From the IMG/VR virus record IMGVR_UViG_3300043788_000134, positions 1 to 64,000 of that record: a stretch of 64,000 nt of DNA; one strand, written 5' to 3'. This document shows, piece by piece, positions 5,767 to 62,822 of the stretch; the first letter of the stretch is position 1, and each line of letters starts with the position of its first letter. Below the pieces are notes generated by a model. The model was not told the origin of the DNA, made no database searches, and was given only the letters and a program-made list of their open reading frames with translations. Origin of the DNA: a virus. Both the position numbers and the translations under genes were made by a program.

Positions 5767-5812
5767 GGTGACCGATAGTCCTCACAGCACCGCTCCGCTC
5801 TCATGACCCAAC
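5767..5812 (+). repeat. TGACC-box intergenic element, class B1
   Basis: GGTGACCGATAGTCCTCACAGCACCGCTCCGCTCTCATGACCCAAC. Its CCAAC end abuts the stop of 5813-6160. Antisense to the local genes. Confidence 0.85.
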
Positions 5813-6160
5813 CTATTCCGGCGAAGCCCCGCCCTCTTGTTCCTTCGGCAATTTCTCCGATCCTTTTTGCGGCGTGAACGCACTCGACATCGGGTTGCGA
5901 TCCGATCCGACGCGCCCACCGGATTTCCGCGCCGGACGATCCATCCGCGGCTTCACAGCGCCGCCGGTCATGAGACCCAACACCTTGCCGCCCGCAGCGC
6001 GCCTGTGATGCTTCGCCCGGCCGCCGCGCTTTTTCTCGTCACCCTTGGCGTAATCCTCCTCGCCCTTGGCTTCCTTCAAAACGTCGGGATTGCCCTCGGC
6101 GACCAATTCGGTGCGGCCGCCAGAGGCCTTCTTGTGGTGATGTCCCTTGTGGCCTTTCAT
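5813..6160 (-). CDS. highly basic GG-motif protein (virion-internal/DNA-associated?)
   Basis: ORF 5813-6244. Start ATG 6160 has AGGAGG upstream. Sequence MKGHKGHHHKK...RGGRAKHH...GGAVKPRMDRPARKSGGR. Confidence 0.6.
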   Translation of the reverse strand: MKGHKGHHHKKASGGRTELVAEGNPDVLKEAKGEEDYAKGDEKKRGGRAKHHRRAAGGKVLGLMTGGAVKPRMDRPARKSGGRVGSDRNPMSSAFTPQKGSEKLPKEQEGGASPE

Positions 6161-6174
6161 CTGAAAGCCTCCTG

Positions 6175-7470
6175 TTAGGTCGAAGATTGCGCATTGCCGA
6201 AGATCGGCACGGTATTGAGCGGCGTACCCGAAATCATGTTCCACACGCCGACGTTCGATATCACAGTCAGCCGCACAACGCCATTAGTCGTGGCGGCATT
6301 GGTGATCGGCGTTCCACCCCCGGCCGCGGATAGTTGGATCGTACCGCGCACGTCGCCCGTGGTATTGGTGGCAGGCGAACCCGTGGTGGACACTGCGGCC
6401 GTAAAGCCGACGTTGGACACGACCGCCGTTGCACCGGCATAGACCAAAACCTGCGAGGCAAAATCAGCCCGGATCGGGAAGCCAAACACATCGCCCACCC
6501 CGACCGTGACCGTCGAAGTCGTGCCAAGCACCGTGTTGCTGATCGACGAAATGTATTTGAACGCCTTCTTGCCATAAGCAATTGCCGTCGTGGTGTTCAA
6601 TTCGACCGCGATTTGTTCGGTCATAAGTTGCCGCCACACGTCGTAGCCGGTCACGAGAATTGTCGCGGTGCCGACCGAGGTCCCTGACGGCTGGACTTCA
6701 AGATAAACATTACGCGCCAAGGCTTCGGCCGGATTGTGCATCCGGTATAACCCAGCTTGGATGTTTGGATTGACCGAAACCGGCACCGGACTTTGCGGGC
6801 CATAATTTGCCGTCGGCGGATAGAGTGTCGCACCATACAAGGCCGCTTGCCCAACCGGAGCGGAAATCGCGGTCGCGGGCGCATTCGACACCGTGATCGT
6901 CGTAAAGTTGGTCGAAGAAATTCCCAGGACCTGGGTGAATAGACCGGTCGTTCCCGCGGTATTGCCGCAGTTCGCGATGTAAATCCACTGACCCAGCGTG
7001 AACTTGGTGTTGTCGTACACCTGGACGGTCGTGGAATTCGCAGTCGTGGTGGCACCGGTAAAACCAAAGTCAAGCGCGATCGGAACGGTAACGACGCTGC
7101 TCGTGCCCTGCGGCACAATCGGCACGTTCAAGGCAATCGCGCAGGCCGGCGACGAAGCATTCTGCACCGGAGCCGAAACCAGCGTCAGCAAGCCGGTCGC
7201 GGCCACGCTCGCCGCCGCGACGATGATGTTGGACGCCGTCGCCATCGGAATAGCGTCGATGGTGGGCGGCGTCGGCAAGCCCATGAACGCTGGCTGGCGC
7301 CCAGGCGCAGTGCCATCCTTGGCAAACGGGAATGCGCGGATATCCTGAAAACCCGCGCCTTGGTAGAACGCCGACGGCCCATCCAGCGGGCCGACGCTGG
7401 CGGTCGTGCCGGCATCAACCTCCAGCGCGCCCATCGCGCTCAGGGGACCGCGGAAGTTTGAATCAGCCAT
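6175..7470 (-). CDS. virion structural protein (431 aa; capsid-associated by position)
   Basis: ORF track. Lies directly downstream of the capsid candidate. A/T/G/V-rich. Confidence 0.6.
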   Translation of the reverse strand: MADSNFRGPLSAMGALEVDAGTTASVGPLDGPSAFYQGAGFQDIRAFPFAKDGTAPGRQPAFMGLPTPPTIDAIPMATASNIIVAAASVAATGLLTLVSAPVQNASSPACAIALNVPIVPQGTSSVVTVPIALDFGFTGATTTANSTTVQVYDNTKFTLGQWIYIANCGNTAGTTGLFTQVLGISSTNFTTITVSNAPATAISAPVGQAALYGATLYPPTANYGPQSPVPVSVNPNIQAGLYRMHNPAEALARNVYLEVQPSGTSVGTATILVTGYDVWRQLMTEQIAVELNTTTAIAYGKKAFKYISSISNTVLGTTSTVTVGVGDVFGFPIRADFASQVLVYAGATAVVSNVGFTAAVSTTGSPATNTTGDVRGTIQLSAAGGGTPITNAATTNGVVRLTVISNVGVWNMISGTPLNTVPIFGNAQSST

Positions 7471-7508
7471 CGCTCAAGCTCCGTTTGATGTGTTGCTGCG
7501 CATGAGCT

Positions 7509-8423
7509 TTACGATGTTGGAAATTCGCCCCACGCCGCGCGAGGGTCGTTATATCCGAATGAATAGCGCTCGTAAGCTTTCACGAGGAGGTTGTCGGTGA
7601 TGTTGTCTACCCACATATCGCTTTCATACGGGATACGCATCATGTGAATCAGCCCCTCGATATTCGTGGTCAGGAACCACGCGAAGTTCGAGGTCAAGAA
7701 GTCAAGCACGATATGCCCTTCCGGCAGGCCGCCGCTCAAGGTCAAGATCGCGTTCACGTCGTTGTCCGCAGTGCCGGGCCGCAGTTCGGTTTTGGTCAGG
7801 CGGATCGCGATGGCTTCCAGGTTCGGCGGCACGACGAGCCGGCGGGCGCGAGACATGATGCGCAGCCCGCGTTCATTGACGAACTGGGTGCGGACGTTGG
7901 TCATGTCAGCGAGCAGCGTCGATTCGTTCAGGCTTTTCGGCGTCGATGACGTATTGGCCCAGGTGCCACCGTCGAATGGATGCGCGGTGGAAAACAGCGA
8001 CACGCCGTCGCCAATGATCGAGGAATTGTACACGTTGCCGAGATTGAGGATATTGGCGCCCTGGATTTCCTTGAACTGGGCGAACGCTTCCTGCAGTTTC
8101 AGATTGGTTGGATTGAACTGCGCCTTGTAGAGATTGTCGTCGATCATCTTGCGGGTGACGGCGTAACCCAGCGCGACTTCGATATGCACGAACGCCCAGG
8201 TCCAGCGTTCGCCGGGGTTGTTGTCGAACTGGGTGGCGGCGCCTTCGTCTTTCAAAAACGGCAGCGCGACAAACGCCATCTGGGTCGAGCGTTCCACCGC
8301 CATGTTGGACTTGTGGGTGGTGAACACTTTGTCCCATTGTCTCGGAATCATTTCGTATGAGCCGCGGACATCGAACAGTCCCGGCAGGAGTTCCGAACGA
8401 ATATTTGCTAATGCGACGGGCAT
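7509..8423 (-). CDS. major capsid protein candidate
   Basis: ORF track, 304 aa. Size and position in the head module fit, and the sequence looks like tailed-phage major capsid families from memory. No search was run. Confidence 0.55.
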   Translation of the reverse strand: MPVALANIRSELLPGLFDVRGSYEMIPRQWDKVFTTHKSNMAVERSTQMAFVALPFLKDEGAATQFDNNPGERWTWAFVHIEVALGYAVTRKMIDDNLYKAQFNPTNLKLQEAFAQFKEIQGANILNLGNVYNSSIIGDGVSLFSTAHPFDGGTWANTSSTPKSLNESTLLADMTNVRTQFVNERGLRIMSRARRLVVPPNLEAIAIRLTKTELRPGTADNDVNAILTLSGGLPEGHIVLDFLTSNFAWFLTTNIEGLIHMMRIPYESDMWVDNITDNLLVKAYERYSFGYNDPRAAWGEFPTS

Positions 8424-8437
8424 TGTTCTCTAGCTCC

Positions 8438-9040
8438 TTACAGGCCGGAACGAAGGATTTGATTGTTGAAGCGGACAATGACCCAGTTGTAGTTCGTCGT
8501 CGGGTCGGAACCGTTGCCGACGCCGGGGAACAGCGAATAGACCACGAAGGGCAAGCCGGAGGCCGTGGTGCCCGTGGTCGTGGCGATGGTCGATTGATCG
8601 ACCGTCATTACCGAATAGCCTTGGCCGGTCTGTGACGCGGTAAAGCCGCCCGTGGTGTAGTTGATGAAATTCCCGATGTTCGACGAGACGATGGCGGTGG
8701 CCAGCGTTGCGACCTTGAACAACGCGCCGGGCGAATCGATCACGTAGGCGGTGGCGTCCTGGGCTGCGGCGTTGCCGGGCCAGAACGGCGACCATTGCGG
8801 GGTTTGGCCCGACAGCTGATAAACGCAACCGACGAAGATGCCCTCGATCGGAAGCGTGGTCGATGAATTGCCCTGGATGATATAAGCCGACGTGGCGTTG
8901 GCGCGCTGCACGACATCGCCGAATTGGATGGCCGTCGTATTGCTTTTGAGGATGCCGCGCGTCGATTGCTGATAGTCGGCCATAAAGCCGGGGAGGTAGC
9001 CCCAATGTTCAAAGCCGAACTGTGATTGAGTATTTGCCAC
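8438..9040 (-). CDS. capsid-module structural protein (decoration/second capsid protein?)
   Basis: ORF track, 200 aa. GTG start with GGAG upstream. Immediately upstream of the capsid candidate. Confidence 0.55.
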   Translation of the reverse strand: MANTQSQFGFEHWGYLPGFMADYQQSTRGILKSNTTAIQFGDVVQRANATSAYIIQGNSSTTLPIEGIFVGCVYQLSGQTPQWSPFWPGNAAAQDATAYVIDSPGALFKVATLATAIVSSNIGNFINYTTGGFTASQTGQGYSVMTVDQSTIATTTGTTASGLPFVVYSLFPGVGNGSDPTTNYNWVIVRFNNQILRSGL

Positions 9041-9201: not shown

Positions 9202-9251
9202 CTTTGGGTCACGAGAGGGCCTTCGTGGAAGCAGCACCGGATTCGGTCAAC
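9202..9251 (-). repeat. TGACC-box intergenic element, class B2
   Basis: Reverse complement is GTTGACCGAATCCGGTGCTGCTTCCACGAAGGCCCTCTCGTGACCCAAAG. An extra partial terminal motif tttggatcacg lies at 9191-9201. Sense to 8438-9040. Confidence 0.85.
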
Positions 9252-9252
9252 G

Positions 9253-11052
9253 TCACGCCGCCACGCCAAACGTCGCGGTTTCCAGATCGCTCACGGCAAG
9301 CCCGAACGCCGCGAATCGATCGGCCCAGTACGGCGACGTGTGCAATCGCTCGCGCAATCGCGCGATAAGCTGCACCGGCACTCTGCCGTGCAAGCGATAT
9401 TCGAGGACGCCCAAGAAATAGAGCGCAAAACCGTTTTCTGGCGAGATCACTTCCGACAGCACCGTGAGATTTTGCATCTGTTGCTTGATCTTGACCGGCC
9501 GCGTTTCGTTCAAGAGCCGCCGAAAATTCAAATGATAGTTCATGTAGAACCAGATATCGGTTATCTGCTCGCCGGTCGGAATATCGTCTGGCTTGATTTT
9601 GGCGAAGGCTTCGCGAAAGCCGAGATGCGCGAGTATCAGACCTTGTTCGATCTCGGTTTGCTTGCCGTAAGAGCCGCCGGCAAAGCGCAACTCCTTCGAT
9701 CCCACGTCCTGGATAAGACCTTGCGCCACCATCGCATCATAAATAGGCGTATTCGGGAGCGGTTGCAGAGGGCTGATTCGATACCAATCACAGTCCATCT
9801 CGCGCGCCACATTGATCGTGTCGTGGACCATGCCGAGGGTTTCATTCGGAAAGCCCACCATCAAAAGGACGGACGTGTGAATTTGCTCATGCTCGCGGAA
9901 AATTTGCGCCGCCTCGATGAAGTTTTCGAGCGTGCCTGGTTTTTTGACTTGGCGCAAGATCGTCCGGTTGCCTGATTCCATGCCGATATTAACCGCGATA
10001 CAGCCAGACTCGGCCATCGCGGCAACAAGAGCCGGCGTACACGACGACGCGATGATGCCGTTGGTGGCGTCCCAGGTGACATCGATCTTTCTGCGGACAA
10101 TCTCATTGAACATTTGCGTGGCGCGGTGCTCGTCCTTCAAAAGATCGTCATCGAGCCACATGAAGTGGCCGACGCCGTAATCGTTCACCAGCATTTCGAT
10201 TTCATCGACGACGTTCGTATAGTCGCGTTGGCGCACGCCCTTGCCGTTGAAATTCCGCACCGAGCAGAACGTGCACTGCGCGCGGCATCCGCGATTGGAC
10301 AACACCGTGGCAAAAACCGTATCCTTGGGCTTGAAGCAATAAAACGCGCCGATCGTGCCGTGCTTGGAATGTTCGGGAATGTCGAGGAGGTCGAATGCCG
10401 GGATGATCGAGATATCTTCGGGCACGCAGTCGGCCGTTAGATGGATGCGTTCGGGTTTGTTGATGATGAGTTGAGCAAGGTCGGTCACGGGACGCAGCCG
10501 ATTCACGGCTTGGACAAAGCGCGGCAACGACTCGTCGGCTTCGCGAAGGAACGCGGCGGAGACACAGGGAATGTCATCAAGCACACGCTCCACGTCGTTC
10601 GTCACATGCACGCCACCGATGGCGACAGGAGCGTAAGCCGCGGCGAAGGTGCACACGTCCTTGAGCGACTGATGACTCATGGTGAACATGCAGCCGACGC
10701 CGATCAGGTCCGGTGCGGTGTCATAGATGGCCTTGAACAAAGCCCACTTCCACGTCGCCGTGTGGTCAAAGGCCCCGCTTCCCCGCGCCGCCTTGAGCAC
10801 GATATGATTCAGGTTCAGAATCTGCATATCCACGTCGATGGCGCGAAGCTGTTGCGCCAGCAACGCCAGTCCGTAGGGAGGGTAATTGGTGTAGCGACCG
10901 CGCTTGGCGATTTCAGGACGGAACAGGTTGGCATCCGCGTCGGGGGGGTTGACCAGAAGCACGCGGCGGATTTGGCGGGCGGGAAATAGCGCAGAGAGAG
11001 CCGCGTCCACAGCGGTTGGGTCATGAGAGCGGAGTGGCGGGGATAGGGTCAT
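9253..11052 (-). CDS. B12-binding-domain radical SAM enzyme (class B-like)
   Basis: 599 aa. N-terminal RVLLVNPP...YPPYGLALLA resembles a cobalamin-binding domain. CRAQCTFC is a CxxxCxxC cluster motif. The ATG lies inside element 11015-11060. Confidence 0.8.
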   Translation of the reverse strand: MTLSPPLRSHDPTAVDAALSALFPARQIRRVLLVNPPDADANLFRPEIAKRGRYTNYPPYGLALLAQQLRAIDVDMQILNLNHIVLKAARGSGAFDHTATWKWALFKAIYDTAPDLIGVGCMFTMSHQSLKDVCTFAAAYAPVAIGGVHVTNDVERVLDDIPCVSAAFLREADESLPRFVQAVNRLRPVTDLAQLIINKPERIHLTADCVPEDISIIPAFDLLDIPEHSKHGTIGAFYCFKPKDTVFATVLSNRGCRAQCTFCSVRNFNGKGVRQRDYTNVVDEIEMLVNDYGVGHFMWLDDDLLKDEHRATQMFNEIVRRKIDVTWDATNGIIASSCTPALVAAMAESGCIAVNIGMESGNRTILRQVKKPGTLENFIEAAQIFREHEQIHTSVLLMVGFPNETLGMVHDTINVAREMDCDWYRISPLQPLPNTPIYDAMVAQGLIQDVGSKELRFAGGSYGKQTEIEQGLILAHLGFREAFAKIKPDDIPTGEQITDIWFYMNYHLNFRRLLNETRPVKIKQQMQNLTVLSEVISPENGFALYFLGVLEYRLHGRVPVQLIARLRERLHTSPYWADRFAAFGLAVSDLETATFGVAA

Positions 11053-11060
11053 CGGTCACC
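11015..11060 (-). repeat. TGACC-box intergenic element, class B1
   Basis: Reverse complement is GGTGACCGATGACCCTATCCCCGCCACTCCGCTCTCATGACCCAAC. It contains the ORF start of 9253-11052. Confidence 0.85.
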
Positions 11061-11319: not shown

Positions 11320-11357
11320 GTTGACCGCACCGGAATCCCTGCGGTTCCGTGACCAAA
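11320..11357 (+). repeat. TGACC-box intergenic element, class A2
   Basis: GTTGACCGCACCGGAATCCCTGCGGTTCCGTGACCAAA. It ends 2 nt from the stop of 11360-12280. Antisense. Confidence 0.85.
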
Positions 11358-11359
11358 TC

Positions 11360-12280
11360 TTAATTCACCGGGAGACGTTCCGCAACACGTCCGCCGAACG
11401 ATTGCCGGAATCGCCACCGATCGATGCGTGCCACCTTGTAGGCAATAACATCAATCGACGGCGTGAATTTCGTCGCCATACCTCCGGTCGGCTTCAACGA
11501 CGCCCGCAACGGCCGAGGTTCGCTATAGACGATTTCGGAGAACGGCACCGGCTCAAACGCCATCCGGGCGCCCAACAGGCTTTGCTCTTTGACCATTTGC
11601 GCCAATTCCGCCCGCGACACCGCCGGTTGACTGACCAGATGATAAATCCGTCGCGTCACGGGCTTTGTCGCAATTTCCAATAAGCCTCTCGCCGTATCGT
11701 TCACGTCCGATACATTGAAAATATTATCCACCGCCATGCGCGCGTTCGGTTTGAGCAGCGTTTCATAGCATTGCGCCACCGGGCAGTGCTGGCCTTGGAC
11801 CCATCCCACGTTCCATCCCGTGCGCGCCACGACGCCGCGCGGCGTGCACAGCACATGACTTTCCACGGCAGCTTTCAATGCGCCGTAGACATTGAGCGGG
11901 CGTCGTGCGGTATCTTCGGAGCAATCCCCCGCTTTACCGTCAAACACCTGGTCGGTAGATAAAAACACCACCCGCGCGCCGGCGTCGTCCGCATCATCGA
12001 CGAGGTTCTTGCTGGCGTGCAGATTCAAAAGCCACGCCGCTTCCTGATTCGCGTAAATCCACGCAGGAGCGATATAGCCCGCAAGCAGCACCACCACATC
12101 GTCAGCATTCAAGTCGGGAACCACGGTGCGCAGCGACGCGGTTCGCATGTCGAACGGCACGAGGCCGTAGCGCACACGGCTTAAAGCGGTGCCAATGGCT
12201 GGTACACGCGCGGTGCGGGCCTCTTGGTGAAGCACACTGCCGATGACGCCGGAGGCACCGACGATGATGATTCGGGTCAT
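11360..12280 (-). CDS. NAD(P)-dependent sugar-nucleotide reductase/epimerase, RmlD-like
   Basis: MTRIIIVGASGVIGS Rossmann motif at the N-terminus. STDQVFDG and YGALK (YxxxK) motifs. The ATG is the ATG of the element's CATGACCC end. Confidence 0.75.
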   Translation of the reverse strand: MTRIIIVGASGVIGSVLHQEARTARVPAIGTALSRVRYGLVPFDMRTASLRTVVPDLNADDVVVLLAGYIAPAWIYANQEAAWLLNLHASKNLVDDADDAGARVVFLSTDQVFDGKAGDCSEDTARRPLNVYGALKAAVESHVLCTPRGVVARTGWNVGWVQGQHCPVAQCYETLLKPNARMAVDNIFNVSDVNDTARGLLEIATKPVTRRIYHLVSQPAVSRAELAQMVKEQSLLGARMAFEPVPFSEIVYSEPRPLRASLKPTGGMATKFTPSIDVIAYKVARIDRWRFRQSFGGRVAERLPVN

Positions 12281-12317
12281 GAGAGCGGAGCGGCGAGTGA
12301 GAGGATTATCGGTCACC
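12271..12317 (-). repeat. TGACC-box intergenic element, class B1
   Basis: Reverse complement is GGTGACCGATAATCCTCTCACTCGCCGCTCCGCTCTCATGACCCGAA. Its ATG is the start codon of 11360-12280. Confidence 0.85.
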
Positions 12318-12603: not shown

Positions 12604-12642
12604 GTTGACCGCACCGTAATCCCGGCCTCTCGTGATCCAAAG
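12604..12642 (+). repeat. TGACC-box intergenic element, class A1
   Basis: GTTGACCGCACCGTAATCCCGGCCTCTCGTGATCCAAAG. It ends 1 nt from the stop of 12644-13594. Antisense. Confidence 0.9.
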
Positions 12643-14439: not shown

Positions 14440-14478
14440 GTTTGGGTCACGAGAGGCCGGGATTACGGTGCGGTCAAC
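14440..14478 (-). repeat. TGACC-box intergenic element, class A1
   Basis: Reverse complement is GTTGACCGCACCGTAATCCCGGCCTCTCGTGACCCAAAC. It lies 16 nt upstream of ATG 14424. It is a near-perfect inverted copy of 12604-12642. Confidence 0.9.
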
Positions 14479-15951: not shown

Positions 15952-16000
15952 GGTGACCGTGATGCGGCTATGCTTGCACCGCGAGTGAATGATCCACAAC
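15952..16000 (+). repeat. TGACC-box intergenic element, degenerate class B
   Basis: GGTGACCGTGATGCGGCTATGCTTGCACCGCGAGTGAATGATCCACAAC. It overlaps the stop of 15968-16546. Antisense. Confidence 0.6.
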
Positions 16001-16546
16001 CTTTTTTTGCGACCGCCACGGATCAAAAAAGCTTCCGTTCCATCGCGTCAGTCCGACCTTGCGCGCCACACCGATATCGACGACCATTCCCGCGAAATCC
16101 TCAACGTCCTCGCTGGAAATCCGCGAGGGCCGCACGATCGCCGCAGGGACCGTGCGCAGATACGACTCAACATGTGCCTTTTGCCGTCCATAAGCCGTGG
16201 CACCAGCTTTCTCCACGGCCTCCGACGAAATGAATACAATAAATGCGCCGGTTTGCACATAATGTTGCGCAATCTCTATCTGCGCGTCCACATTCACCCG
16301 CCACGATAACGGATTCGATTCACAGTCCACAAATTTGCTCATCGCGCCGACCAGATAAATCGTGCCACTCGTTATCATCGGCAGATATTGCCAATCGATC
16401 GCCGCGAGATCAAGAAACACCGGATCGGGCCAAGATGGAAAGGCGCCGACCTTGCGGCTCGTCGCTTGCCACGCCAAGTGACGGCGCTGTAATTCCTGTC
16501 GCAATGCCATTCCGACCAGGCCATCACCCCCAATCACGAAATGCAC
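15968..16546 (-). CDS. short NAD(P)-binding SDR/epimerase-like protein
   Basis: MHFVIGGDGLVGMAL Rossmann motif and YGRQK (YxxxK). 192 aa. Confidence 0.6.
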   Translation of the reverse strand: MHFVIGGDGLVGMALRQELQRRHLAWQATSRKVGAFPSWPDPVFLDLAAIDWQYLPMITSGTIYLVGAMSKFVDCESNPLSWRVNVDAQIEIAQHYVQTGAFIVFISSEAVEKAGATAYGRQKAHVESYLRTVPAAIVRPSRISSEDVEDFAGMVVDIGVARKVGLTRWNGSFFDPWRSQKKVVDHSLAVQA

Positions 16547-19380: not shown

Positions 19381-19422
19381 CACTGGATCACGAGAGACAG
19401 GGATTACGGTGCGGTCACCAAC
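19381..19422 (-). repeat. TGACC-box intergenic element, class A
   Basis: Reverse complement is GTTGGTGACCGCACCGTAATCCCTGTCTCTCGTGATCCAGTG. Sense to 19155-19373. Confidence 0.85.
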
Positions 19423-20728: not shown

Positions 20729-20974
20729 TCAGGTGACCGATTCCGGTCTCTCAACCGCCCAAAACTCGCGTGACACAAGAGGCACCGCGCCGGCCGCGTC
20801 CATCTCGGCAACAATCTCTTGGTGTGTCGCCTCGCGCCATTGAAGCGGTGGAAACGCTCGCAGACCGTTTGGGGTAAAGAACGCCTTGCCGACCTTGCGG
20901 TATGGCACCCATTCATCGTGGATTTTGCCCATCGCATTACACTTGCGCAAGTAGTTCGATTGCTCCGGCGTCAC
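20729..20974 (-). CDS. hypothetical protein
   Basis: ORF track. The GTG start overlaps the portal stop (GTGA). The 3' end reads through element 20732-20779. Confidence 0.5.
   Translation of the reverse strand: MTPEQSNYLRKCNAMGKIHDEWVPYRKVGKAFFTPNGLRAFPPLQWREATHQEIVAEMDAAGAVPLVSREFWAVERPESVT
20732..20779 (+). repeat. TGACC-box intergenic element, class B2
   Basis: GGTGACCGATTCCGGTCTCTCAACCGCCCAAAACTCGCGTGACACAAG. Its left half is almost identical to copy 30501-30548. Antisense. Confidence 0.8.
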
Positions 20975-23190
20975 GAGCTACCTCCATTTCCACCGCCCGA
21001 ATCAGCCGTCGCGGGAGGCTGCAACGCTTGATGCACATTCAAGGCATGTTCCGCAAGGTCCATCTGGCGGTCATGCACGCCTTGCACAGCCTCCAAACCA
21101 GCGGTCTTTTGCGCGTTCGCGGCGTCCGCCTTGTGGATAACCATTTCCTTGGCAAGATTGACCGTAGCTATATTCTGTTCGGTGGCGAGTTCGGCCTGTT
21201 TGATTTGGTTTTCCTGCTGCGCATTTTGCGCATCTGCTTGCGCCTTTTGCGCGCCCGTCGTGGCCTGGGTCATCTTCGCCTCCGCGGCGATCAATTGCGG
21301 ATTCGGCTGCGGCGCGGCGGCAGGCGGTGCCTGGATCAATCCCGCCGGGTCTTCGCGAATCACCGCCAAGATGCGCTGCAAGGTTTCGGTCGGATTCATG
21401 ATCGGCGTGAATGCGGGAATAGCGATCAATTGCGCGAGCGCCACGCCTTTTGCCACACGATGAATGTGCGACGGCGTATTGGGATCGGAGCGCGGCACCA
21501 AGTTACAATCGTTTAGCGCCTGCAAGAACTTTTGCTCGTTCCAAAAATCCTTGCCGCAAATCTTATTGGACTTCCAGAAGTCCTCCGGGTTTTGTTTGAA
21601 CAATTCGACAATCAATTCGATTTCCTCGGCCTGGGCCTGGTGCATGCCTTTGAACGCCGCCGACATGACCTTGGTTGCCTGCTCGATCTGCGCCATCATC
21701 GTGCCGACCGGGACGTTTTGAATGCCCTCCGCCGTCGGGGTATCGGCCACGCCGCCGACGGCTTGGGCTTGCGACGTAATCTTGTCGATCAGCGCAAGAA
21801 GGCCCGGCGTCACGTCCTTGTAGGGCAAGCCCTGAATCACTTGATTGATCGGCTGTCCATTCGTCTCGATCGGCATGAACGTGCCTGCGGCCAAGCGAAA
21901 GTCCGATGTGTTTTGTCGCCCTCCCAGTTTTGAAATCACCCCCGACGGAAAATTCGCATACATGCCGGCGTCAAGCGCCTCGCGCCACGCCGCGGTCATC
22001 GCCATTGACGAGTTACCCAGAATATTCAGCATCCCCGTGCCGTAGAATCCAGGTCCAGGCACATACGGATATTTGACGTACATCCGCTTGCGCTCGCACT
22101 CGTCGTCATCCTCTTTCCAGTCGCGGCGAATCGCAAGAATCTCTTTGGAATCCTTGTCCATCGTTACGATATAGGGCAGCGGAATACCTTCGTCCTTGAA
22201 CTTGCCGGGCGCGTACTGACGCAGATCAAGCTCGCACTGCGTTTCCCACAAATTGTACGGCTGGTCTTCCGGCCGCCTCTGATTCGTTTGCGTACCTTGC
22301 TGCTGTTCTATTTGCTCATTGACGGCATTAGGCGCCGCCGCCATCGGCTGCGGTAACGACACATCGCGATAGGCGCCGAGCAATTGCATGCGTTTCATGA
22401 CCGAAGGACGCATCTGAATTTCGTGCGTGATGCGCGAGCACGAGCGCAAATCCTTGATGGTGTCAGAGACGATCAAATCCTTCGCATCGACGCTTTCCGA
22501 AACTGGCCGCCGGCGCATCGGGCAGCGGTAGACTTTCTTAAATCCCGATCCTCCAAAATAGGTACCCCACAACAGCATGTGCGACGTGTCGGGATAATAT
22601 TCCGACGCCGTCGTCGTCAGATAATAATTCATGTCGCGCTCGAACGCTTCGGCCAGTTCATCTTCGCCCTGCGTATCGGCACCGTCGTTGCCATCGTCGG
22701 CTATTTTAACTGGACCTTCGGACGGCAACAGTTCGGCTTGCGCGTTTGCCCATCCCTTCAAAACCGCTTCAAGCAACAGCGGATTGGTGACCGTCGAAAG
22801 TCCTTCGACTGCCGCAGACGTATCGGCCGCGTTCGCGCGCGGTTCCTTGATCTCCAGTCCGAGCAGTTCGATGCCGCGGGCACGGATGGCAAGATAATTG
22901 GCGCGCGATTGATTGTCGGCATTGACCTGGTCCCAAAGTTCGACAGAAATTTTGCCGAGTTCAATGGCTGGTATTCGTTCGGCGAGATTTTCGTAAAATG
23001 GATCGTCGTCCGCGTCTGTTGCTTTGGGACGCCGCGCGTCCAACTGCACGATCACGCCACCATCGTCGGCCGGACTTGTGACGGTGCCGGTCACGGGATC
23101 GACGCTCTCCACGTTGTCGTCATCGTCAATGACGACGGAAACGCCTGAGACTCCCGCGGCGTCAGCCATGGAAGTCACTTTCGGCATCAC
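20971..23190 (-). CDS. portal protein
   Basis: About 740 aa, located a few small genes downstream of the terminase. Q/A-rich C-terminus. The earliest plausible start is the GTG at 23190 inside element 23180-23228 (alternative ATG at 23169). Confidence 0.7.
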   Translation of the reverse strand: MMPKVTSMADAAGVSGVSVVIDDDDNVESVDPVTGTVTSPADDGGVIVQLDARRPKATDADDDPFYENLAERIPAIELGKISVELWDQVNADNQSRANYLAIRARGIELLGLEIKEPRANAADTSAAVEGLSTVTNPLLLEAVLKGWANAQAELLPSEGPVKIADDGNDGADTQGEDELAEAFERDMNYYLTTTASEYYPDTSHMLLWGTYFGGSGFKKVYRCPMRRRPVSESVDAKDLIVSDTIKDLRSCSRITHEIQMRPSVMKRMQLLGAYRDVSLPQPMAAAPNAVNEQIEQQQGTQTNQRRPEDQPYNLWETQCELDLRQYAPGKFKDEGIPLPYIVTMDKDSKEILAIRRDWKEDDDECERKRMYVKYPYVPGPGFYGTGMLNILGNSSMAMTAAWREALDAGMYANFPSGVISKLGGRQNTSDFRLAAGTFMPIETNGQPINQVIQGLPYKDVTPGLLALIDKITSQAQAVGGVADTPTAEGIQNVPVGTMMAQIEQATKVMSAAFKGMHQAQAEEIELIVELFKQNPEDFWKSNKICGKDFWNEQKFLQALNDCNLVPRSDPNTPSHIHRVAKGVALAQLIAIPAFTPIMNPTETLQRILAVIREDPAGLIQAPPAAAPQPNPQLIAAEAKMTQATTGAQKAQADAQNAQQENQIKQAELATEQNIATVNLAKEMVIHKADAANAQKTAGLEAVQGVHDRQMDLAEHALNVHQALQPPATADSGGGNGGSS

Positions 23191-23228
23191 GAGAGGTTGT
23201 GCCGTTTGCAGCACCGGATTCGGTCACC
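23180..23228 (-). repeat. TGACC-box intergenic element, class B2
   Basis: Reverse complement is GGTGACCGAATCCGGTGCTGCAAACGGCACAACCTCTCGTGATGCCGAA. Sense to the portal gene. Back-to-back with 23244-23283. Confidence 0.85.
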
Positions 23229-23243: not shown

Positions 23244-23283
23244 GTTGACCGTACCGTAATCGCTCCGCTCTCGTGATCCAAAG
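23244..23283 (+). repeat. TGACC-box intergenic element, class A
   Basis: GTTGACCGTACCGTAATCGCTCCGCTCTCGTGATCCAAAG. Its end abuts the stop of 23284-23463. Antisense. Confidence 0.85.
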
Positions 23284-27500: not shown

Positions 27501-27781
27501 TCCCCGCCCCTGCAGACCGGCGCCGCAGCTGCGCCGAGCCACACCGCGCCCTCCGGCGTGCGCCATTCGTGCCACGGGTTGGCGTGCGGCGGCATTACGG
27601 TGATTCGCATCATGCCGCAGAAATAGCAGGATTTAATGTTGCGGGCGTTGCCGTCGATCGCGTCGCAGGCAGCGATTCGCTTTTCGTTGTCGTGATCCCA
27701 CCGGTGGGAGCGCGCCATCGCCGGGATGATTGTGGGAAGGTCGTTGGAGGGGAGGAGTGTTTGAGTCATTGTGTGGGTCAC
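27497..27781 (-). CDS. hypothetical Cys/His-containing protein
   Basis: ORF track. Its GTG start is the GTG of element 27771-27810. An in-frame ATG lies 12 nt later. Confidence 0.5.
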   Translation of the reverse strand: MTHTMTQTLLPSNDLPTIIPAMARSHRWDHDNEKRIAACDAIDGNARNIKSCYFCGMMRITVMPPHANPWHEWRTPEGAVWLGAAAAPVCRGGE

Positions 27782-27810
27782 GAGAGGGAAGCGATTACGG
27801 TGCGGTCAAC
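27771..27810 (-). repeat. TGACC-box intergenic element, class A
   Basis: Reverse complement is GTTGACCGCACCGTAATCGCTTCCCTCTCGTGACCCACAC. Sense to 27497-27781. Confidence 0.85.
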
Positions 27811-28399: not shown

Positions 28400-28690
28400 T
28401 TATGGCGTGAGTAGATTGCAGCGTTGGGTCATGCGAGCGGAGTGTGTGACGAGAGAATCATCGGTCACCGTCTCGCTTTGCACAGTCGCGGTTGACCGCA
28501 CCGTACCCACATATCCCTCGTGACCCAACTCTTTCTTCACGGCTTGGTCTAACTCCTTCCGCCACCGCATCACCCGCTCTCCCGCCGCAACGATAGTAGC
28601 ATGGCGCCCTTCGTAGCTCTTGGCGAATGCAACAAACAAATAATCAAACGACGCCTTTTCAAGCTCACGCTCGGCCTCTTGACGCCACAT
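28400..28690 (-). CDS. hypothetical protein; 3' end reads through two elements
   Basis: ORF 28400-28702 (MWRQEAERELEKASF...). The last ~45 codons are the translation of elements 28492-28530 and 28424-28470. Confidence 0.45.
   Translation of the reverse strand: MWRQEAERELEKASFDYLFVAFAKSYEGRHATIVAAGERVMRWRKELDQAVKKELGHEGYVGTVRSTATVQSETVTDDSLVTHSARMTQRCNLLTP
28424..28470 (-). repeat. TGACC-box intergenic element, class B1
   Basis: Reverse complement is GGTGACCGATGATTCTCTCGTCACACACTCCGCTCGCATGACCCAAC. Sense to 28098-28382. Confidence 0.85.
28492..28530 (+). repeat. TGACC-box intergenic element, class A (divergent middle)
   Basis: GTTGACCGCACCGTACCCACATATCCCTCGTGACCCAAC. Back-to-back with 28424-28470. 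Confidence 0.8.
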
Positions 28691-30268: not shown

Positions 30269-30510
30269 GATTGCCCCTCCAAAAGCTTGCCGAGGGCGGA
30301 CTGGGGCAGCGGCGGGTCGCCGAATAGCACCATGGCGCGGGTGAGAGGAACCGATTCGCGGCGCGCACGGTCGGCTAGAACTTCGGGAGGAGGTGGTTCT
30401 TGGGGGGTGGAACGGAGGAAATCGGGGGGGATATAGCGGTGTTGGGCGTTGACGCGGGCGCGATGTAACCGGCGCCGTTCGGCGGCTATGGCGGGAGGAA
30501 GCGGCATCAC
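30265..30510 (-). CDS. hypothetical protein
   Basis: ORF 30265-30522. Starts at GTG-ATG inside element 30501-30548 (VMPLPPAIAAERRRL...). Confidence 0.5.
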   Translation of the reverse strand: MMPLPPAIAAERRRLHRARVNAQHRYIPPDFLRSTPQEPPPPEVLADRARRESVPLTRAMVLFGDPPLPQSALGKLLEGQS

Positions 30511-30548
30511 GAGAGGCCCCACCGGCTGAGAGACCGGAATCGGTCACC
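30501..30548 (-). repeat. TGACC-box intergenic element, class B2
   Basis: Reverse complement is GGTGACCGATTCCGGTCTCTCAGCCGGTGGGGCCTCTCGTGATGCCGC. It contains the start of 30265-30510. Confidence 0.85.
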
Positions 30549-37940: not shown

Positions 37941-38374
37941 CTAAACCCCAACGCATCACCCCGCCGGCGGCCCCAGGCGCATTGCTCAAGCGTGCCTTCG
38001 GCCTCGCCCAGCGCATCAAACTCCGCGACAGCAACGATCGCGATCCAGTCTATCTGGCCTTAGTCCGGCAGTGTCCTTGCCTCAAATGCGGAATGGACCC
38101 GTGTGGCGAAGCGGCTCACGTCCGATTCAACTCCGGCGCCCACGGCAAGCACAACGGCTTAGGCAAAAAGCCTGCCGATCGCTTCGCGCTGCCGCTTTGC
38201 GCCGGCTGTCACCGCGAAGATAACGACGCGCAACACAAAATCGGGGAACTTGAATTCTGGAACCGCGTCGGGCTTAATCCAATTCTCACCGCGGCAAAGC
38301 TTTACGCCGCCAAAGGCGACATCGTGCGAATGCGTGCGGTCGTGTTTGCTGTAGTAGCATCGCGACGATCCTGA
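37931..38374 (+). CDS. HNH/Zn-binding nuclease-like protein (DUF968/Ref-like)
   Basis: ORF 37871-38374. The only plausible ATG is 37931, inside the element (MTQPKPQRITPP...). CLKCG...AAHV...PLCAGCHR...H pattern. Confidence 0.55.
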   Translation: MTQPKPQRITPPAAPGALLKRAFGLAQRIKLRDSNDRDPVYLALVRQCPCLKCGMDPCGEAAHVRFNSGAHGKHNGLGKKPADRFALPLCAGCHREDNDAQHKIGELEFWNRVGLNPILTAAKLYAAKGDIVRMRAVVFAVVASRRS

Positions 38375-49272: not shown

Positions 49273-49311
49273 ATTTGGGTCACGAGAGGCCGGGATTACG
49301 GTGCGGTCAAC
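49273..49311 (-). repeat. TGACC-box intergenic element, class A1
   Basis: Reverse complement is GTTGACCGCACCGTAATCCCGGCCTCTCGTGACCCAAAT. Nearly identical to copies 12604 and 14440. Confidence 0.9.
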
Positions 49312-53790: not shown

Positions 53791-53839
53791 CTTTGGATCA
53801 CGAGAGGGGAGAACGTGTGGATAGTCCGGTTCGGTCACC
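53791..53839 (-). repeat. TGACC-box intergenic element, class B2
   Basis: Reverse complement is GGTGACCGAACCGGACTATCCACACGTTCTCCCCTCTCGTGATCCAAAG, followed by further TCAC..CCAAAG-like iterations before ATG 53752. Confidence 0.85.
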
Positions 53840-55893: not shown

Positions 55894-57441
55894 TTAGCCT
55901 TTCCTAAAACGACCATTCGGGTGACCGTGTTGCGCCCCACTATCCACAGGCCTCTCATGACCCACATCTTCCTTGCCCTTTCGCCCCGATTCAGGCTTAA
56001 TCCCTCCCCCATGCGCAAAGCCCTGCTTTTGGCGTACTGCACCGCCTGTATTTTGCTGTTGTTCTACCCCTGGAACGCTGTTTTGCTGGGCCTGTGCTTC
56101 TACCGCAGCCGGGCCTTGGACGAATGGGCGTACCGCCTGTGCCAAGGGCGGAAGCGCCAAGCGCCCTCCGCTCAAGTCGGGCCGCGCCGTCTGGGCCATA
56201 GCAGCGGCTTGCCGCTGCTGTCCCAGGGGCGACCGCATACGGATCGATTCACCGAGATCGGCGGCTTTTCCCATCGCCATGGAATTCGACATCTTGCGGA
56301 GCGCCCAACCGGCGATCGGAGCTAAGGCAGTCACCCCATGAGTCGCTAGTGCTCCCATGCCGTACATCGCCGTCAGCAATCCGCCGCCGCCGCCCAAGAT
56401 ATTTCCCGCGTGGCGCATGGTATTTTCAAGCGGCGTTCCCTCCGCGATTTGCCTAACCTGATCCATTTCATCGGGTGTTAGGCCCCGTCCGAGCTTCGGA
56501 TTGCTCGCAATATCGACCATGCGCTGGCGAATCGTATTGGCGATATTCATCCCGGAGTTTGCCGCCTTGGCGCGCAAATACGCCTTGGTCATCCGCTGAT
56601 CCAAATCCGCCGCCCGCGCCATGGCCGCATAGTTGCCATTGGCTTGCTGTAGGATTTGCGCCGCAGCTTGCGGATTACCTTGAATCACGTCCGCAGCGGG
56701 CAGATTGGATAGAAACTCGTCAAGGTGTTGTTGCGCCGACTTAGCCGCCAGCCGTTCAGTCGGATCAATTGAGCCGGCCGCATTTCCCAACGTGCGGCGC
56801 AGACTACGCAGATTATCCACCGTCAAGAACGGCTGCGGACCTCCATCATCGCCTTGGGGCACTTTTTCAAGCTTGCCGAGGATGCCAAAGGTTTTCGGCG
56901 CGAGATTTTCGTCGATCCCAGCTTCATTCAAATTGGTTTGGATTTCTTGACTGAGGCGCGGCCCCGCCGCCGCGTGAATCTGCACGTTTGCGACCGTCGG
57001 CGATTCGTAGCCGGCAACGGCCGCACCCTTTAATTCCGGGATAGTTGGTGCTGTTGCTTCTCCGACGGAACGCGGCGTCAAAGCAACACCGGCAACACCT
57101 TCGCCCGCCCGGGCGGCCACTGACGAAGGACTGGTAAAGCCCGCTAGGCTGCTCGCCCTGTCAGCTATTTCTGCATTCGTTGCTTGCAGCCGAGCCTCAT
57201 CTTCGTCCGACCACATGCCGGGCTTGCTTGGCACAACATCGGTCGCGCCCGACGCGACATCACCCGGCAATGTTGCTCCTTGATAGGCACTTTTGACCAA
57301 TTGCGCCGGCCACGTCTGCATGAGCTTCTGGCCGACCGACGGTGCCTGTGCCGCGGGTTCCGAAGGAGAATCGCTCGGCAACGTAAAAGCCTGCGGTGCC
57401 GCGGGCGCGTCGCTCGGCAATACAAAATCGTCGGGCATCAC
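55894..57441 (-). CDS. virion/ejection-associated protein (515 aa)
   Basis: ORF track. ATGA overlap with the upstream 1146-aa gene. The 3' end reads through element 55920-55966. Confidence 0.6.
   Translation of the reverse strand: MMPDDFVLPSDAPAAPQAFTLPSDSPSEPAAQAPSVGQKLMQTWPAQLVKSAYQGATLPGDVASGATDVVPSKPGMWSDEDEARLQATNAEIADRASSLAGFTSPSSVAARAGEGVAGVALTPRSVGEATAPTIPELKGAAVAGYESPTVANVQIHAAAGPRLSQEIQTNLNEAGIDENLAPKTFGILGKLEKVPQGDDGGPQPFLTVDNLRSLRRTLGNAAGSIDPTERLAAKSAQQHLDEFLSNLPAADVIQGNPQAAAQILQQANGNYAAMARAADLDQRMTKAYLRAKAANSGMNIANTIRQRMVDIASNPKLGRGLTPDEMDQVRQIAEGTPLENTMRHAGNILGGGGGLLTAMYGMGALATHGVTALAPIAGWALRKMSNSMAMGKAADLGESIRMRSPLGQQRQAAAMAQTARPDLSGGRLALPPLAQAVRPFVQGPAAVEAQAQQNSVPGVEQQQNTGGAVRQKQGFAHGGGIKPESGRKGKEDVGHERPVDSGAQHGHPNGRFRKG
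55920..55966 (+). repeat. TGACC-box intergenic element, class B
   Basis: GGTGACCGTGTTGCGCCCCACTATCCACAGGCCTCTCATGACCCACA. Antisense. Lies within the 3' end of 55894-57441. Confidence 0.75.
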
Positions 57442-62273: not shown

Positions 62274-62275
62274 GT

Positions 62276-62315
62276 GGTGACCGCACCGTTATCGCTCCGC
62301 GTTCGTGATCCAAAG
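62276..62315 (+). repeat. TGACC-box intergenic element, class A
   Basis: GGTGACCGCACCGTTATCGCTCCGCGTTCGTGATCCAAAG. It ends 3 nt from the stop of 62319-62723. Antisense. Confidence 0.85.
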
Positions 62316-62318
62316 CAA

Positions 62319-62723
62319 CTACGCCGGATTCACAATGCCATATAGAAACGTCTCCGATCCCGACGCCACGCCCGTTGCCGTGGACACCACGAATCCCGAT
62401 CCTGCGGTGACCACCGACAGATAAAGCCCGTGATTGAGCACTGTCAACGCTGCCGTGAGATTCGTCGGCGCCCATAGGGGAAAACCTCCGCTTTTCAAGC
62501 CGGTCTGGCTGATCGTCGTGGTAGTGGCGTTGGCAAGCGTGAACGATCCCATGGCCTGCGGGAATACGTTGATGATCGCGGTCGCTACCGCGGCGATGGC
62601 GGCGACGAGATTGGCGTTGCCGGTGACAAGCGAAGTTCCCAACGCCTGGATTTGCGCCGCCTCGTTCGAGATATTGGTGACGATGCCCTTGAGCGTCGAA
62701 TTGATGTCGTCGGGGGAGGCCAT
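62319..62723 (-). CDS. small fibre-like structural protein (bracketed by inverted elements)
   Basis: ORF track, 134 aa, A/T/G/N-rich. Confidence 0.55.
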   Translation of the reverse strand: MASPDDINSTLKGIVTNISNEAAQIQALGTSLVTGNANLVAAIAAVATAIINVFPQAMGSFTLANATTTTISQTGLKSGGFPLWAPTNLTAALTVLNHGLYLSVVTAGSGFVVSTATGVASGSETFLYGIVNPA

Positions 62724-62733
62724 GGCTCAGGTT

Positions 62734-62772
62734 TTATGGGTTACGAGAGACAGGGATTATGGTGCGGTCAAC
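62734..62772 (-). repeat. TGACC-box intergenic element, class A
   Basis: Reverse complement is GTTGACCGCACCATAATCCCTGTCTCTCGTAACCCATAA. Sense to 62319-62723. It directly abuts 62773-62822. Confidence 0.8.
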
Positions 62773-62822
62773 GTTGACCGAATCCGGCGCAATTCCAACG
62801 AAAGCCCTCTCGTGATCCAAAG
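62773..62822 (+). repeat. TGACC-box intergenic element, class B2
   Basis: GTTGACCGAATCCGGCGCAATTCCAACGAAAGCCCTCTCGTGATCCAAAG. Its end abuts the stop at 62823. With the previous copy it forms the GTCAACGTTGAC junction. Confidence 0.85.

Follow-up and report, generated by a model that had tools for sequence, protein, structure and literature searches.

The window, a 64,000-nt stretch of a ~65-kb uncultivated phage, carries a conserved two-box sequence of 39 to 50 bp that lies essentially always between genes. Profile searches with class-specific HMMs identified 28 full copies at an E value of ≤2e-7 (14 of class A, 6 of class B1, and 8 of class B2; Table 1) and no further full copies. Each copy consists of a head box, GKTGACCG, and a tail box, CTCTCGTGAYCCAAA, separated by 27 to 28 bp in class A, 35 to 36 bp in class B1, and 36 to 38 bp in class B2, close to the two spacings (about 27 versus 36 to 38 bp) given in an earlier note on this DNA. 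That the repeat is real is confirmed by motif counts far above chance: 19 matches to CTCTCRTGAYCCAAAG with up to 2 mismatches were found versus 0.11 expected, and 36 matches to GKTGACCG versus 4.8 expected. The earlier note listed 30 copies, 28 clear and 2 degenerate; the profiles recovered 28 but missed the degenerate copy at 15952. A further candidate, GGTGACCG at 35853, was rejected as an element copy, being a target-site duplication from an IS insertion. Three distant class-A copies (12604, 14478, and 49311), previously described as nearly identical over about 38 bp, do not differ in their first 32 nt. The 12604+ and 31787− copies also have a common flank of 21 to 26 nt past the head.

Table 1. 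Copies of the two-box element and related features in the window
Feature	Coordinates	Strand	Context
B1 copy	5767..5813	+	antisense to local genes
B2 copy	9202..9251	-	sense
B1 copy	11014..11060	-	sense, upstream of B12-radical SAM gene
A (A2 variant) copy	11320..11359	+	antisense, adjoins stop of RmlD-like gene
B1 copy	12270..12317	-	sense, upstream of RmlD-like gene
A copy	12604..12642	+	antisense; flank past head common to 31787-
A copy	14440..14478	-	sense
A copy	19381..19419	-	sense, upstream of head module; position kept in 8/8 phages
B2 copy	20732..20780	+	antisense
B2 copy	23180..23228	-	sense, upstream of portal; head-to-head with 23244+
A copy	23244..23283	+	antisense
A copy	27771..27810	-	sense, upstream of replication/terminase block
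B1 copy	28422..28469	-	sense; head-to-head with 28491+
A copy	28491..28530	+	antisense
B2 copy	30500..30548	-	sense, directly after XRE/Cro-like gene
A copy	31268..31307	+	sense, then GGGAG-N6-ATG
A (A2) copy	31748..31787	-	antisense
B1 copy	32237..32283	+	sense, upstream of exonuclease gene
A (A2) copy	33211..33250	-	antisense, overlaps stop codon
B2 copy	34587..34635	+	sense
A copy	35168..35207	-	antisense
B1 copy	37894..37941	+	sense; IS1595-family IS inserted at head
A copy	49273..49311	-	sense
B2-like copy	53791..53839	-	sense, upstream of lysis-region genes
B2-like copy	55920..55967	+	antisense, within 3' end of ORF 55894-57441
A copy	62276..62315	+	antisense
A copy	62734..62772	-	sense; head adjoins head of 62773+
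B2 copy	62773..62822	+	antisense
Doubtful degenerate copy of the earlier note	15952..16001	+	head box alone; missed by profiles
Divergent switch region	30776..30912		sigma-70-like promoters, own palindromic operator; tail-box fragment at 30816-30829

As claimed earlier, the copies sit at gene boundaries: by our gene calls they fall between ORFs, save for a few overlaps. The 20732+, 28469−, 28491+, and 37894+ copies overlap weak or doubtful gene calls or starts, and 55920+ overlaps the final ~25 codons of its ORF. That copies lie so close to stop and start codons is largely due to the compact genome, since heads adjoin neighboring ORFs too.

The element family is kept, at ~28 copies per genome as in this phage, in related metagenomic phages whose terminases are 58 to 93% identical. 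It was absent from more distant relatives and from 50,697 deposited phages, and class A was absent from 185,579 reference genomes, which gave only two chance-like partial matches. The element is thus specific to this phage clade and not a host REP. REPs of enterobacteria are imperfect palindromes distributed through the host chromosome and linked to RAYT transposases. The element resembles REP/BIME sequences, which are intergenic repeats of about 35 to 40 bp often paired in alternating orientation, but it has no palindrome-driven structure, no RAYT gene, and no genome matches beyond the two partial ones. A sister clade without the element encodes a NusG-like protein instead, an observation counted toward the promoter reading developed below.

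Conservation of single copies was examined across relatives. The class-A copy that precedes the head module, present in all eight phages, is nearly unchanged in sequence, including the middle that had been called variable, next to a protein just 35 to 47% identical and upstream flanks that cannot be aligned. The number and position of copies nevertheless differ among close relatives, and orthologous sense copies have decayed in places (e.g., upstream of portal in L012), so not every copy is essential. Variants are genome-specific: at the N of a class-B2 GANTC site the window has A or T, relatives mostly G.

Adjacent copies were opposite in orientation in 22/27 pairs in the window (binomial P = 7.6e-4) but in just 52/90 pairs in independent related loci (P = 0.085). 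The alternation noted earlier (24 of 29 pairs) therefore stands in the window and is weak in relatives. What recurs is a close head-to-head pair, with a median distance of 269 bp versus 1,534 bp for tail-to-tail neighbors, enclosing small low-GC ORFs or nothing. Relative to genes, 16 copies in the window are sense and 12 antisense; among 183 copies in all, the two are about equal (88 and 95). The earlier note had proposed a polarity rule, in which tails face the bracketed genes (16 sense and 14 antisense copies), and a partition of the phage into gene blocks. The counts are close, but small low-GC ORFs (one a member of Pfam DUF7736), the immunity switch, and IS elements lie between heads. Heads, too, thus bracket real genes. 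The description stands, but the rule is partly a matter of viewpoint, and both it and the partition are weaker than proposed.

The many inverted copies, a divergent tyrosine recombinase encoded at 42213-43163, and AATCCGGT in the B2 head, a sequence probably also present in the R64 sfx core, could suggest sites at which a recombinase inverts or exchanges the flanked cassettes, as in a shufflon. This idea, raised earlier, is extremely improbable: in the window and eight related loci alike, the cassettes of each arm share one gene orientation, and no cassette was found inverted. The sites are not built as a short core between two inverted binding arms, the "bracketed" genes include essential single-copy ones, and the recombinase, which lacks a solved homologue, bears only a weak resemblance to ordinary phage integrases or Xer.

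The variation in copy number and position between close relatives raises another alternative, that the copies are selfish or recombinogenic linkers, a miniature repeat spreading through intergenic DNA. The unit might be a MITE-like head-to-head pair with or without a passenger ORF, persisting mainly via module exchange, while regulatory effects, if any, would come second. Consistent with this are the near-identical distant copies and the pair alike past the head, the genome-specific GANTC variants, the closeness and contents of head-to-head pairs, and homology with the related locus L075, which stops at element positions. The PeSL of T4-type phages, small repeated regulatory cassettes that flank nonessential ORFs, are a precedent (PMC2839356). 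They too lie at insertion, deletion, or replacement borders of related phages, as the element lies at mosaic borders, but they combine a sigma-70-like promoter with a stem-loop terminator, and the element has neither a sigma-70 consensus nor a stem-loop. Target-site duplications of the element and clean empty/filled sites were not found; in a comparison of L012 with L014 the entire spacer was replaced rather than interrupted. No transposase is tied to the repeats, which bear no relation to the ends of the IS1595 copies, and the retention of orthologous copies across deep divergence argues for selection on function. We consider mere linkers unlikely as the main explanation, although linkage and promoter activity are not mutually exclusive.

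Single copies of any class in either orientation showed neither a hairpin nor a U-tract (mean z of about 0), in agreement with the earlier note, and terminator-like hairpins were not enriched (17 found versus 19.7 expected), a result counted in favor of promoters. It is very improbable that the element acts as RNA, whether by sense and antisense copies pairing into RNase III-type processing stalks or by single copies serving as RNA stability or ribosome-binding elements. Two back-to-back pairs do fold strongly (−46.8 and −51.5 kcal/mol; z of about −3.5), and the tail GUGAUCC and head GGUGA are presumably complementary to the conserved 16S rRNA 3′ end. Against this, a third back-to-back pair was not significant (z = −1.76), no Rfam family matched the element, many copies are partnerless, and across genomes primary sequence is conserved rather than complementarity. 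The long-range duplexes suggested earlier are likewise unsupported, since partners are mostly of different classes with unequal spacing.

Sense and antisense copies differ in sequence at several positions. CAAA is present in 55/88 sense but only 29/95 antisense copies (P = 1.6e-5), and the A content of the spacer is 0.39 versus 0.25. Retention of CAAA and an A-rich spacer in sense copies, with relaxation in antisense copies, is what one would expect of a CAAA that forms the start or leader of translated mRNAs. Sense tails are followed directly by SD-N6-7-ATG (CAAAN-GGAG…) or, without an SD, by a start codon 0 to 7 nt on; the tail-to-start distance peaks at 10 to 14 nt. By rough in-house gene calls, an SD is rarer after sense copies (7/24) than at other genes (124/229). 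In both the window and L014, sense copies come after the first gene on either side of the switch.

The switch region itself uses other operators and conventional promoters of the sigma-70 type (TTGCCA-18-TTTAAT), indicating that the element is a separate signal class; a tail-box fragment within the rightward early promoter is all that the switch holds of it. This bears on the possibility that the copies are stoperator-like operator or roadblock sites, bound throughout by a phage protein in the lysogen or early infection. The protein would impose a polar block on elongating RNA polymerase, and the two orientations would insulate expressed islands (immunity genes, accessory ORFs, and IS) from flanking lytic genes. 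Stoperators are 13 to 14 bp long, whereas the element is two-part and 39 to 50 bp. In Cluster A mycobacteriophages they are asymmetric sites in short intergenic spaces whose orientation matters, an established precedent for polar action (PMC9283540). The likeness lies in some tens of asymmetric sites (here ~28) in the short intergenic spaces of a temperate phage, which here encodes an XRE-type regulator and a tyrosine recombinase. The immunity switch, small low-GC ORFs, and both IS transposase genes sit between two heads; the head is near-palindromic (CGGTNACCG); the first 20 nt of class A resemble a GGATCAC-N6-GTGATAA dyad of the switch region; and there is the fragment in the rightward early promoter. 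Yet known stoperators share the early-promoter operator sequence and take one orientation relative to transcription (PMC9283540), whereas the orientations here are 88:95, no full copy overlaps the early promoters, and the clearest operator there is another palindrome, CGCATAACAGGCTATGCG. Immunity genes also vary among relatives while the element is constant, which is unexpected for an immunity-specific repressor, and the sense-only CAAA and A-rich spacer are left unexplained. This candidate of the earlier note is possible but rather unlikely.

On the favored reading, the copies regulate in cis at the DNA level, most likely as a set of compact promoters. Of the four functions first suggested, a promoter in the sense orientation fared best, given the promoter-like spacing of the two boxes, the CAAA bias, and the start-codon distance; the coincidence of mosaic homology borders with copies and the class-A copy kept before the head module also count toward it. 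We give about an even chance to this reading, in which the promoters depend on a factor and transcription begins at the CAAA run. The reader would be host RNA polymerase with a putative specificity factor. The head would make an upstream, −35-like contact, CTCTCGTGAC would lie at about −14 to −5, and transcription would start within the CAAA run, giving class A a predicted layout of TTGACC-17 bp-TCTCGT-7 bp-A. In class B1 a second TGAYCC box would take the −35 position, with the B1 and B2 heads 8 to 10 bp farther upstream, about one helical turn; in class B2 the GANTC site would fall at about −37. Several features are at odds with promoters. Where a −35-like box would be expected, class B2 has none. 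The proposed −10 (TCTCGT/CTCGTG) is missing the A at −11 and fits no sigma consensus known to us. It is also odd for promoters that 95 of the 183 copies are oriented antisense into essential genes, terminase and portal among them.

T7-like phages and phiEco32 have sets of phage-specific promoters that a phage-encoded RNA polymerase or sigma factor recognizes. These similarly comprise many near-identical non-sigma-70 motifs directly upstream of genes, with an A-rich stretch at the start site, but are co-oriented with genes at fixed spacing, whereas the element occurs in both orientations with two spacing values. Here, Pfam, PHROG, and NCBIfam scans of about 80 ORFs detected no sigma factor, RNA polymerase, or known late activator. 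Halovirus HF2 has several classes of intergenic repeats with promoters, at positions conserved across the genus, and long counter-transcripts from both strands (PMC8707807). Both viruses have conserved repeat classes of tens of base pairs confined to intergenic DNA. The HF2 repeats are about nine AT-rich archaeal promoters active in a reporter assay (PMC8707807), in contrast with the ~28 GC-rich two-box copies here, half of them antisense and known from sequence.

An efficient stop in the antisense orientation, as first suggested, is contradicted by L011, L012, and L014, where TerS, TerL, and portal follow antisense copies without a sense copy. Antisense copies, a sequence-differentiated subset directly after stop codons, would mark the ends of transcription units; with the same machinery bound, they may fire against the upstream unit's end or at the least mark it, insulating by interference rather than by efficient termination. 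Sense copies would yield short-leader mRNAs for the next gene and restart transcription along an arm of about 47 kb whose genes are co-oriented. Since each of the two IS1595 transposase genes sits in a head-to-head segment immediately upstream of a sense copy, a promoter there would rescue polar effects. Finally, as the sole conserved intergenic sequence, the copies may double as homology patches for module exchange between related phages.

The conserved ends of the element occur in the window far more often than chance predicts: the tail box matched 19 times versus 0.11 expected, and the head (GKTGACCG) 36 times versus 4.8. One hidden Markov model (HMM) per class, built from the copies that the earlier note had collected by eye, was run again over the window. 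The class HMMs confirmed 28 full copies at E ≤ 2e-7, followed by a clear gap, and the remaining hits were cross-class matches or fragments. The earlier count of about 30 copies is thus largely upheld, except that a degenerate copy at 15952 was not recovered. Measured from head to tail box, the spacing is 27-28 bp in class A, 35-36 bp in class B1, and 36-38 bp in class B2, and therefore the classes differ by roughly one helical turn. B1 has a second TGAYCC box at the position of the class-A head, while B2 carries CCGANTCCGG, with all four bases seen at N. GANTC is mildly depleted in the window overall (214 sites versus 286 expected), and no clear enrichment of it was found in intergenic DNA.

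Two further resemblances were observed in individual copies, which are named here by the coordinate of the head and the strand. A 21-26-nt stretch beyond the head, CTCCTATTACAAACAACC(G/T)CG (12579-12603 and 31788-31812), is common to copies 12604+ and 31787- and on the opposite strand forms the Shine-Dalgarno (SD) sequence of the small ORF that follows each. The reverse complement of all tails contains TTGGATCAC, and the A2 variant (copies 11320+, 31787-, and 33250-) reads ACCGCAccGGAAtcccTGCGGTT. These two resemble the 3′ end and helix 45 of 16S rRNA, which may be coincidence because the resemblances are oppositely oriented.

Relative to genes, 16 copies in the window are sense (tail toward the start of the next gene) and 12 are antisense (tail toward the stop of the preceding gene); over all loci compared, 88 are sense and 95 antisense. 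The alternation of orientations described in the earlier note is borne out in the window, where 22 of 27 neighboring pairs are opposite (P = 7.6e-4), but is weak in the other loci (52 of 90; P = 0.085). A more robust regularity is spacing, with a median of 269 bp head to head versus 1,534 bp tail to tail (Mann-Whitney P = 1.5e-4). In the recurrent unit, the stop of gene X meets the tail of an antisense copy, 0-500 bp separate its head from the head of a sense copy, and the tail of the latter leads through an SD into gene Y. Antisense tails often touch stop codons (42 of 95 are at −5 to +4 nt), and in this compact genome heads adjoin neighboring ORFs as well. The proposed polarity rule, in which tails face the bracketed genes, is correct insofar as tails do face genes, but since heads face other genes, bracketing is a viewpoint and not a rule. 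The head-to-head gaps are occupied: nearly all of the gaps are open in the forward frame from end to end, they have SD-ATG starts, and their G+C content is low (0.43-0.56 versus 0.57 for the genome). A member of the Pfam DUF7736 family is encoded in one gap, and other segments between heads in the window contain the immunity switch (30548-/31268+) and the two IS1595 transposase genes.

Sense and antisense copies differ in sequence. The CAAA end is found in 55 of 88 sense copies versus 29 of 95 antisense copies (P = 1.6e-5). Sense heads read GGT 58 times and GTT 28 times, while antisense heads read GGT 33 times and GTT 61 times (P = 1.6e-5), and the A-rich spacer of B2 occurs in sense copies only. 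Class usage also differs (B2, 40 sense to 75 antisense; A plus B1, 48 to 20; P = 3.5e-6), with the B2 antisense excess inflated because 94 metagenome loci were chosen for holding a B2 copy; in the terminase-selected loci and the window only, the figures are 13 to 23 for B2 and 32 to 14 for A plus B1. Orientation makes no difference to the conservation of the head and CTCTCGTGAC; CTCTCGTGA was part of the search pattern for the metagenome loci.

All three classes were found in related phage loci whose terminases are 58-93% identical and whose G+C content is 55-58% (L005, L011-L016, L029, and L075). The element is absent from the more distant relatives L006, L019, L021, and L024 (60-65% G+C), and a search of these four for a comparable dispersed repeat found none. 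L006 and its near-duplicate L007, the only two with gene tables, have a gene for a NusG-like protein immediately upstream of the terminase genes. The class-A pattern gave two isolated, partial, chance-like matches in 185,579 reference genomes, each of about 16 bits versus 33-48 for true copies and one at the 5′ end of an ORF. The B2 pattern (21 fixed bases) found 94 metagenome stretches, none of them on a contig longer than 63.5 kb, and the element consensus had no match in 50,697 phage records. The genome scans used exact class patterns only. A host REP element is disfavored by the two single partial class-A matches. Because the element is present in close relatives and absent from distant ones, from the phage records, and, apart from those two matches, from the reference genomes, it would belong to one phage clade and not be a generic host repeat.

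The window is a compact tailed-phage genome that encodes small and large terminase subunits, a portal, a tail fiber, and a GH25 lysozyme, together with an XRE regulator, a tyrosine recombinase, an MT-A70-type methylase, and several radical-SAM and sugar-modifying enzymes; an 874-aa ORF encodes a secreted, fiber-like protein. Minus-strand gene arms run from 30775 to 1 and from 64000 to 47987, and a plus-strand arm runs from 30913 to 47926. A tRNA-Arg(TCT) gene (47882-47957, +) sits at the point where plus- and minus-strand arms converge. No deposited phage was similar in a nucleotide search of the window against 50,697 phage records. An alphaproteobacterial host is possible, since the cultured phages with the nearest terminases (≤34% identity) are those of Paracoccus, Roseobacter, Rhizobium, and Caulobacter. 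Terminase homologues are plentiful on metagenome contigs of 58-73 kb. A series of cassettes at 9253-15421 codes for B12-binding radical SAM, RmlD-like reductase, radical SAM-SPASM, and glycosyltransferase-like proteins. In relatives, CTP-transferase/PfkB genes occupy this position, and the region has the appearance of a variable module for sugar or DNA modification that lies downstream of the head genes. L075 has an N6/N4 DNA methylase gene (3054-3791) between terminase and portal, where the window has unrelated small ORFs, and the related viral contig L021 (IMGVR_UViG_3300044714_000124) contains a CRISPR-like array at 1117-1614, with seven repeats of ~37-44 nt at a period of ~73 bp.

Features of the window and of element-free relatives
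Feature	Location	Strand	Remarks
Divergent switch region	30776-30912	divergent	sigma-70-like promoters, own palindrome
IS1595-family insertion sequence	35853-37901		transposase 36926-37822 (-); unannotated 347-aa ORF 35932-36975 (+)
Second IS1595-family transposase gene	54374-55270	-	between heads of 53839- and 55920+
NusG-like protein (PF02357)	L006:8559-9176; L007:2628-3245		65% G+C, element-free; NCBI MAG assemblies GCA_040383985.1, GCA_040384005.1

Individual copies are both retained and lost among relatives. A class-A copy before the first head-module gene is present in 8 of 8 phages, nearly unchanged even in its middle; the protein encoded beside it is 35-47% identical, and the upstream flanks form unalignable groups. 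A cassette in L014 homologous to 34660-35091 has kept both its sense and its antisense copy at 49% protein identity. An antisense class-A copy after the terminase gene makes up the entire stop-to-ATG spacer in L011, L014, L015, and L016 and is missing from L012, L005, and the window, and a sense copy before the portal region has degenerated in L012. In the closest relative, L075 (terminase 93% identical), nucleotide identity of 84-85% is limited to the terminase and portal ORFs; the intervening genes differ, and copies are located at the homology borders. Comparison of empty with filled sites showed spacers that were replaced and none that were interrupted. Because the copies are the only conserved intergenic sequence, they plausibly act also as homology patches for module exchange, by analogy with PeSLs in T4-type phages.

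Mobile or recombining units were considered as well. REP, BIME, and MITE units have palindromic or terminal inverted repeats and a target-site duplication and are spread through the host chromosome. The element has no palindromic structure, the flanks of its copies share no common duplication, and the only target-site duplication found is that of an IS1595 insertion. This insertion sequence has ~25-bp terminal inverted repeats (CGTATTTATCCCTT...), and GGTGACCG at 35853 is half of its 8-bp duplication, which is exactly the head of copy 37894+. The second transposase gene is unrelated to the first at the DNA level, and no terminal repeats or ends could be defined for its insertion sequence. Integron attC sites are same-orientation imperfect palindromes after each ORF, accompanied by IntI and attI; the copies lie in both orientations and are not palindromic. 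In a shufflon, segments occur in both orientations between inverted sites served by a dedicated Rci-type recombinase. Shufflon-like inversion had been suggested for this element, but within each arm of the window and of its relatives all genes point the same way, and no cassette is inverted. The tyrosine recombinase is divergent and gave weak integrase/XerA-type matches only, and a PDB sequence search with it returned no solved homologue.

Known transcription signals did not account for the copies. Sigma-70 promoters combine a TTGACA-like −35 with a TATAAT-like −10 hexamer at a spacing of 16-18 bp and have A at −11 and T at −7. As a −35 hexamer the head (TTGACC/GTGACC) is suitable, but the hexamer 17 bp downstream is TCTCGT, without A at −11, and a sigma-70 consensus scan showed no excess of sites and none at copies. 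Of the consensus sequences considered for ECF-type, sigma-32, sigma-54, Caulobacter sigma-73, and Bacteroidetes promoters, none matches the boxes as well as the spacing. T7-like single-subunit promoter sets need a phage-encoded RNA polymerase and have copies of fixed length co-oriented with the genes. No large ORF matched an RNA polymerase family, and the copies are not co-oriented (16 sense, 12 antisense) and fall into two spacing classes. Intrinsic terminators consist of a GC-rich hairpin and then a U-tract. As the earlier note had observed, no such strong hairpin and U-tract is present: single copies are no more stably folded than shuffled sequence, and a terminator scan found none at copies. 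Structured RNA is likewise disfavored, with z about 0 for single copies and for all classes in both orientations and no Rfam match to them; over the window, tRNA-Arg was the sole Rfam match. The suggestion that antisense copies stop transcription is contradicted, as far as efficient termination is concerned, by gene order: antisense copies, with no sense copy, precede TerS and TerL in L011, L012, and L014 and the portal in L012.

Stoperators are dispersed copies of the short asymmetric site that also forms the early-promoter operator, and the immunity repressor binds both. In Cluster A mycobacteriophages, their orientation is correlated with the direction of transcription (PMC9283540). The switch region has a dyad, GGATCAC-N6-GTGATAA at 30820-30839, whose sequence is similar to the first 20 nt of class A. 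It contains other palindromes, including the perfect CGCATAACAGGCTATGCG at 30864-30881, and of the tail box only a fragment. Among its own sigma-70-like promoters is TTGCCA-18-TTTAAT, positioned so that the mRNA of the XRE gene (30566-30775) would be leaderless. These features argue against the element being the switch operator. A stoperator-like role is further opposed by orientation, since both are used over all loci (88 sense versus 95 antisense).

The reading we favor is that the copies are factor-dependent promoters that start transcription in the CAAA run. We give this specific reading about even chances, and our confidence in a promoter mechanism is moderate. It is supported by the two-box layout and the helical phasing between classes, by sense tails that are followed at once by SD-ATG or lie 0-7 nt before SD-less starts, by the orientation-specific retention of CAAA, and by the sense copies that directly follow the first gene on either side of the switch. 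Insertion sequences just upstream of sense copies are tolerated, as expected if a promoter follows. Sense copies would then start transcription anew along a gene arm that is very long and co-oriented. Since antisense copies have retained the recognition boxes, we infer that they bind the same machinery; because their start region is relaxed, occupancy or antisense firing at unit ends, and not a translated product, is suggested to matter. A search for the reading factor in ~80 ORFs (Pfam, PHROG, and NCBIfam), together with the PDB sequence search for the recombinase, found no sigma factor, RNA polymerase, GcrA, late activator, or known activator. The NusG paralogue of the element-free sister clade suggests an alternative solution there, which may be processive antitermination.

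A broader proposal, which we regard as improbable, is orientation-coded punctuation, in which one DNA-recognition machinery reads the same two-box element two ways and so delimits self-contained, exchangeable promoter-gene-stop cassettes. Sense copies (GGT head, A-rich spacer, and CAAA end) would be promoters; antisense copies (GTT head and relaxed end), which are placed 0-4 nt past stop codons, would signal the end of a unit in a polar manner; and head-to-head gaps would be safe landing pads for accessory ORFs and insertion sequences.

We file the element among the repeated intergenic regulatory elements of phages. Among precedents, the closest are the intergenic repeats with promoters in halovirus HF2 (PMC8707807), PeSL cassettes (PMC2839356), and stoperators (PMC9283540). 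Unlike all three, it has two boxes at two spacings, uses both orientations about equally, has differentiated sense and antisense forms, and pairs its copies head to head around accessory genes. A literature search for this element returned analogues only and no description of it. To our knowledge, no known phage promoter set has an equally used, differentiated antisense form after stop codons or tight head-to-head pairing around accessory genes.

If the copies are only homology patches or operators, they are a well-documented example of a known theme. If they are promoters, they have a non-canonical architecture, with three classes about one helical turn apart and one of them bearing a GANTC methylation site, that would be in use throughout a clade of ~65-kb phages that is abundant, uncultivated, and represented only in environmental metagenome assemblies. 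They would then provide a ready map of transcription units for these phages and a handle for finding the factor that reads them. The antisense form or the head-to-head pairing could reveal a new way to delimit transcription units or to promote modular exchange.
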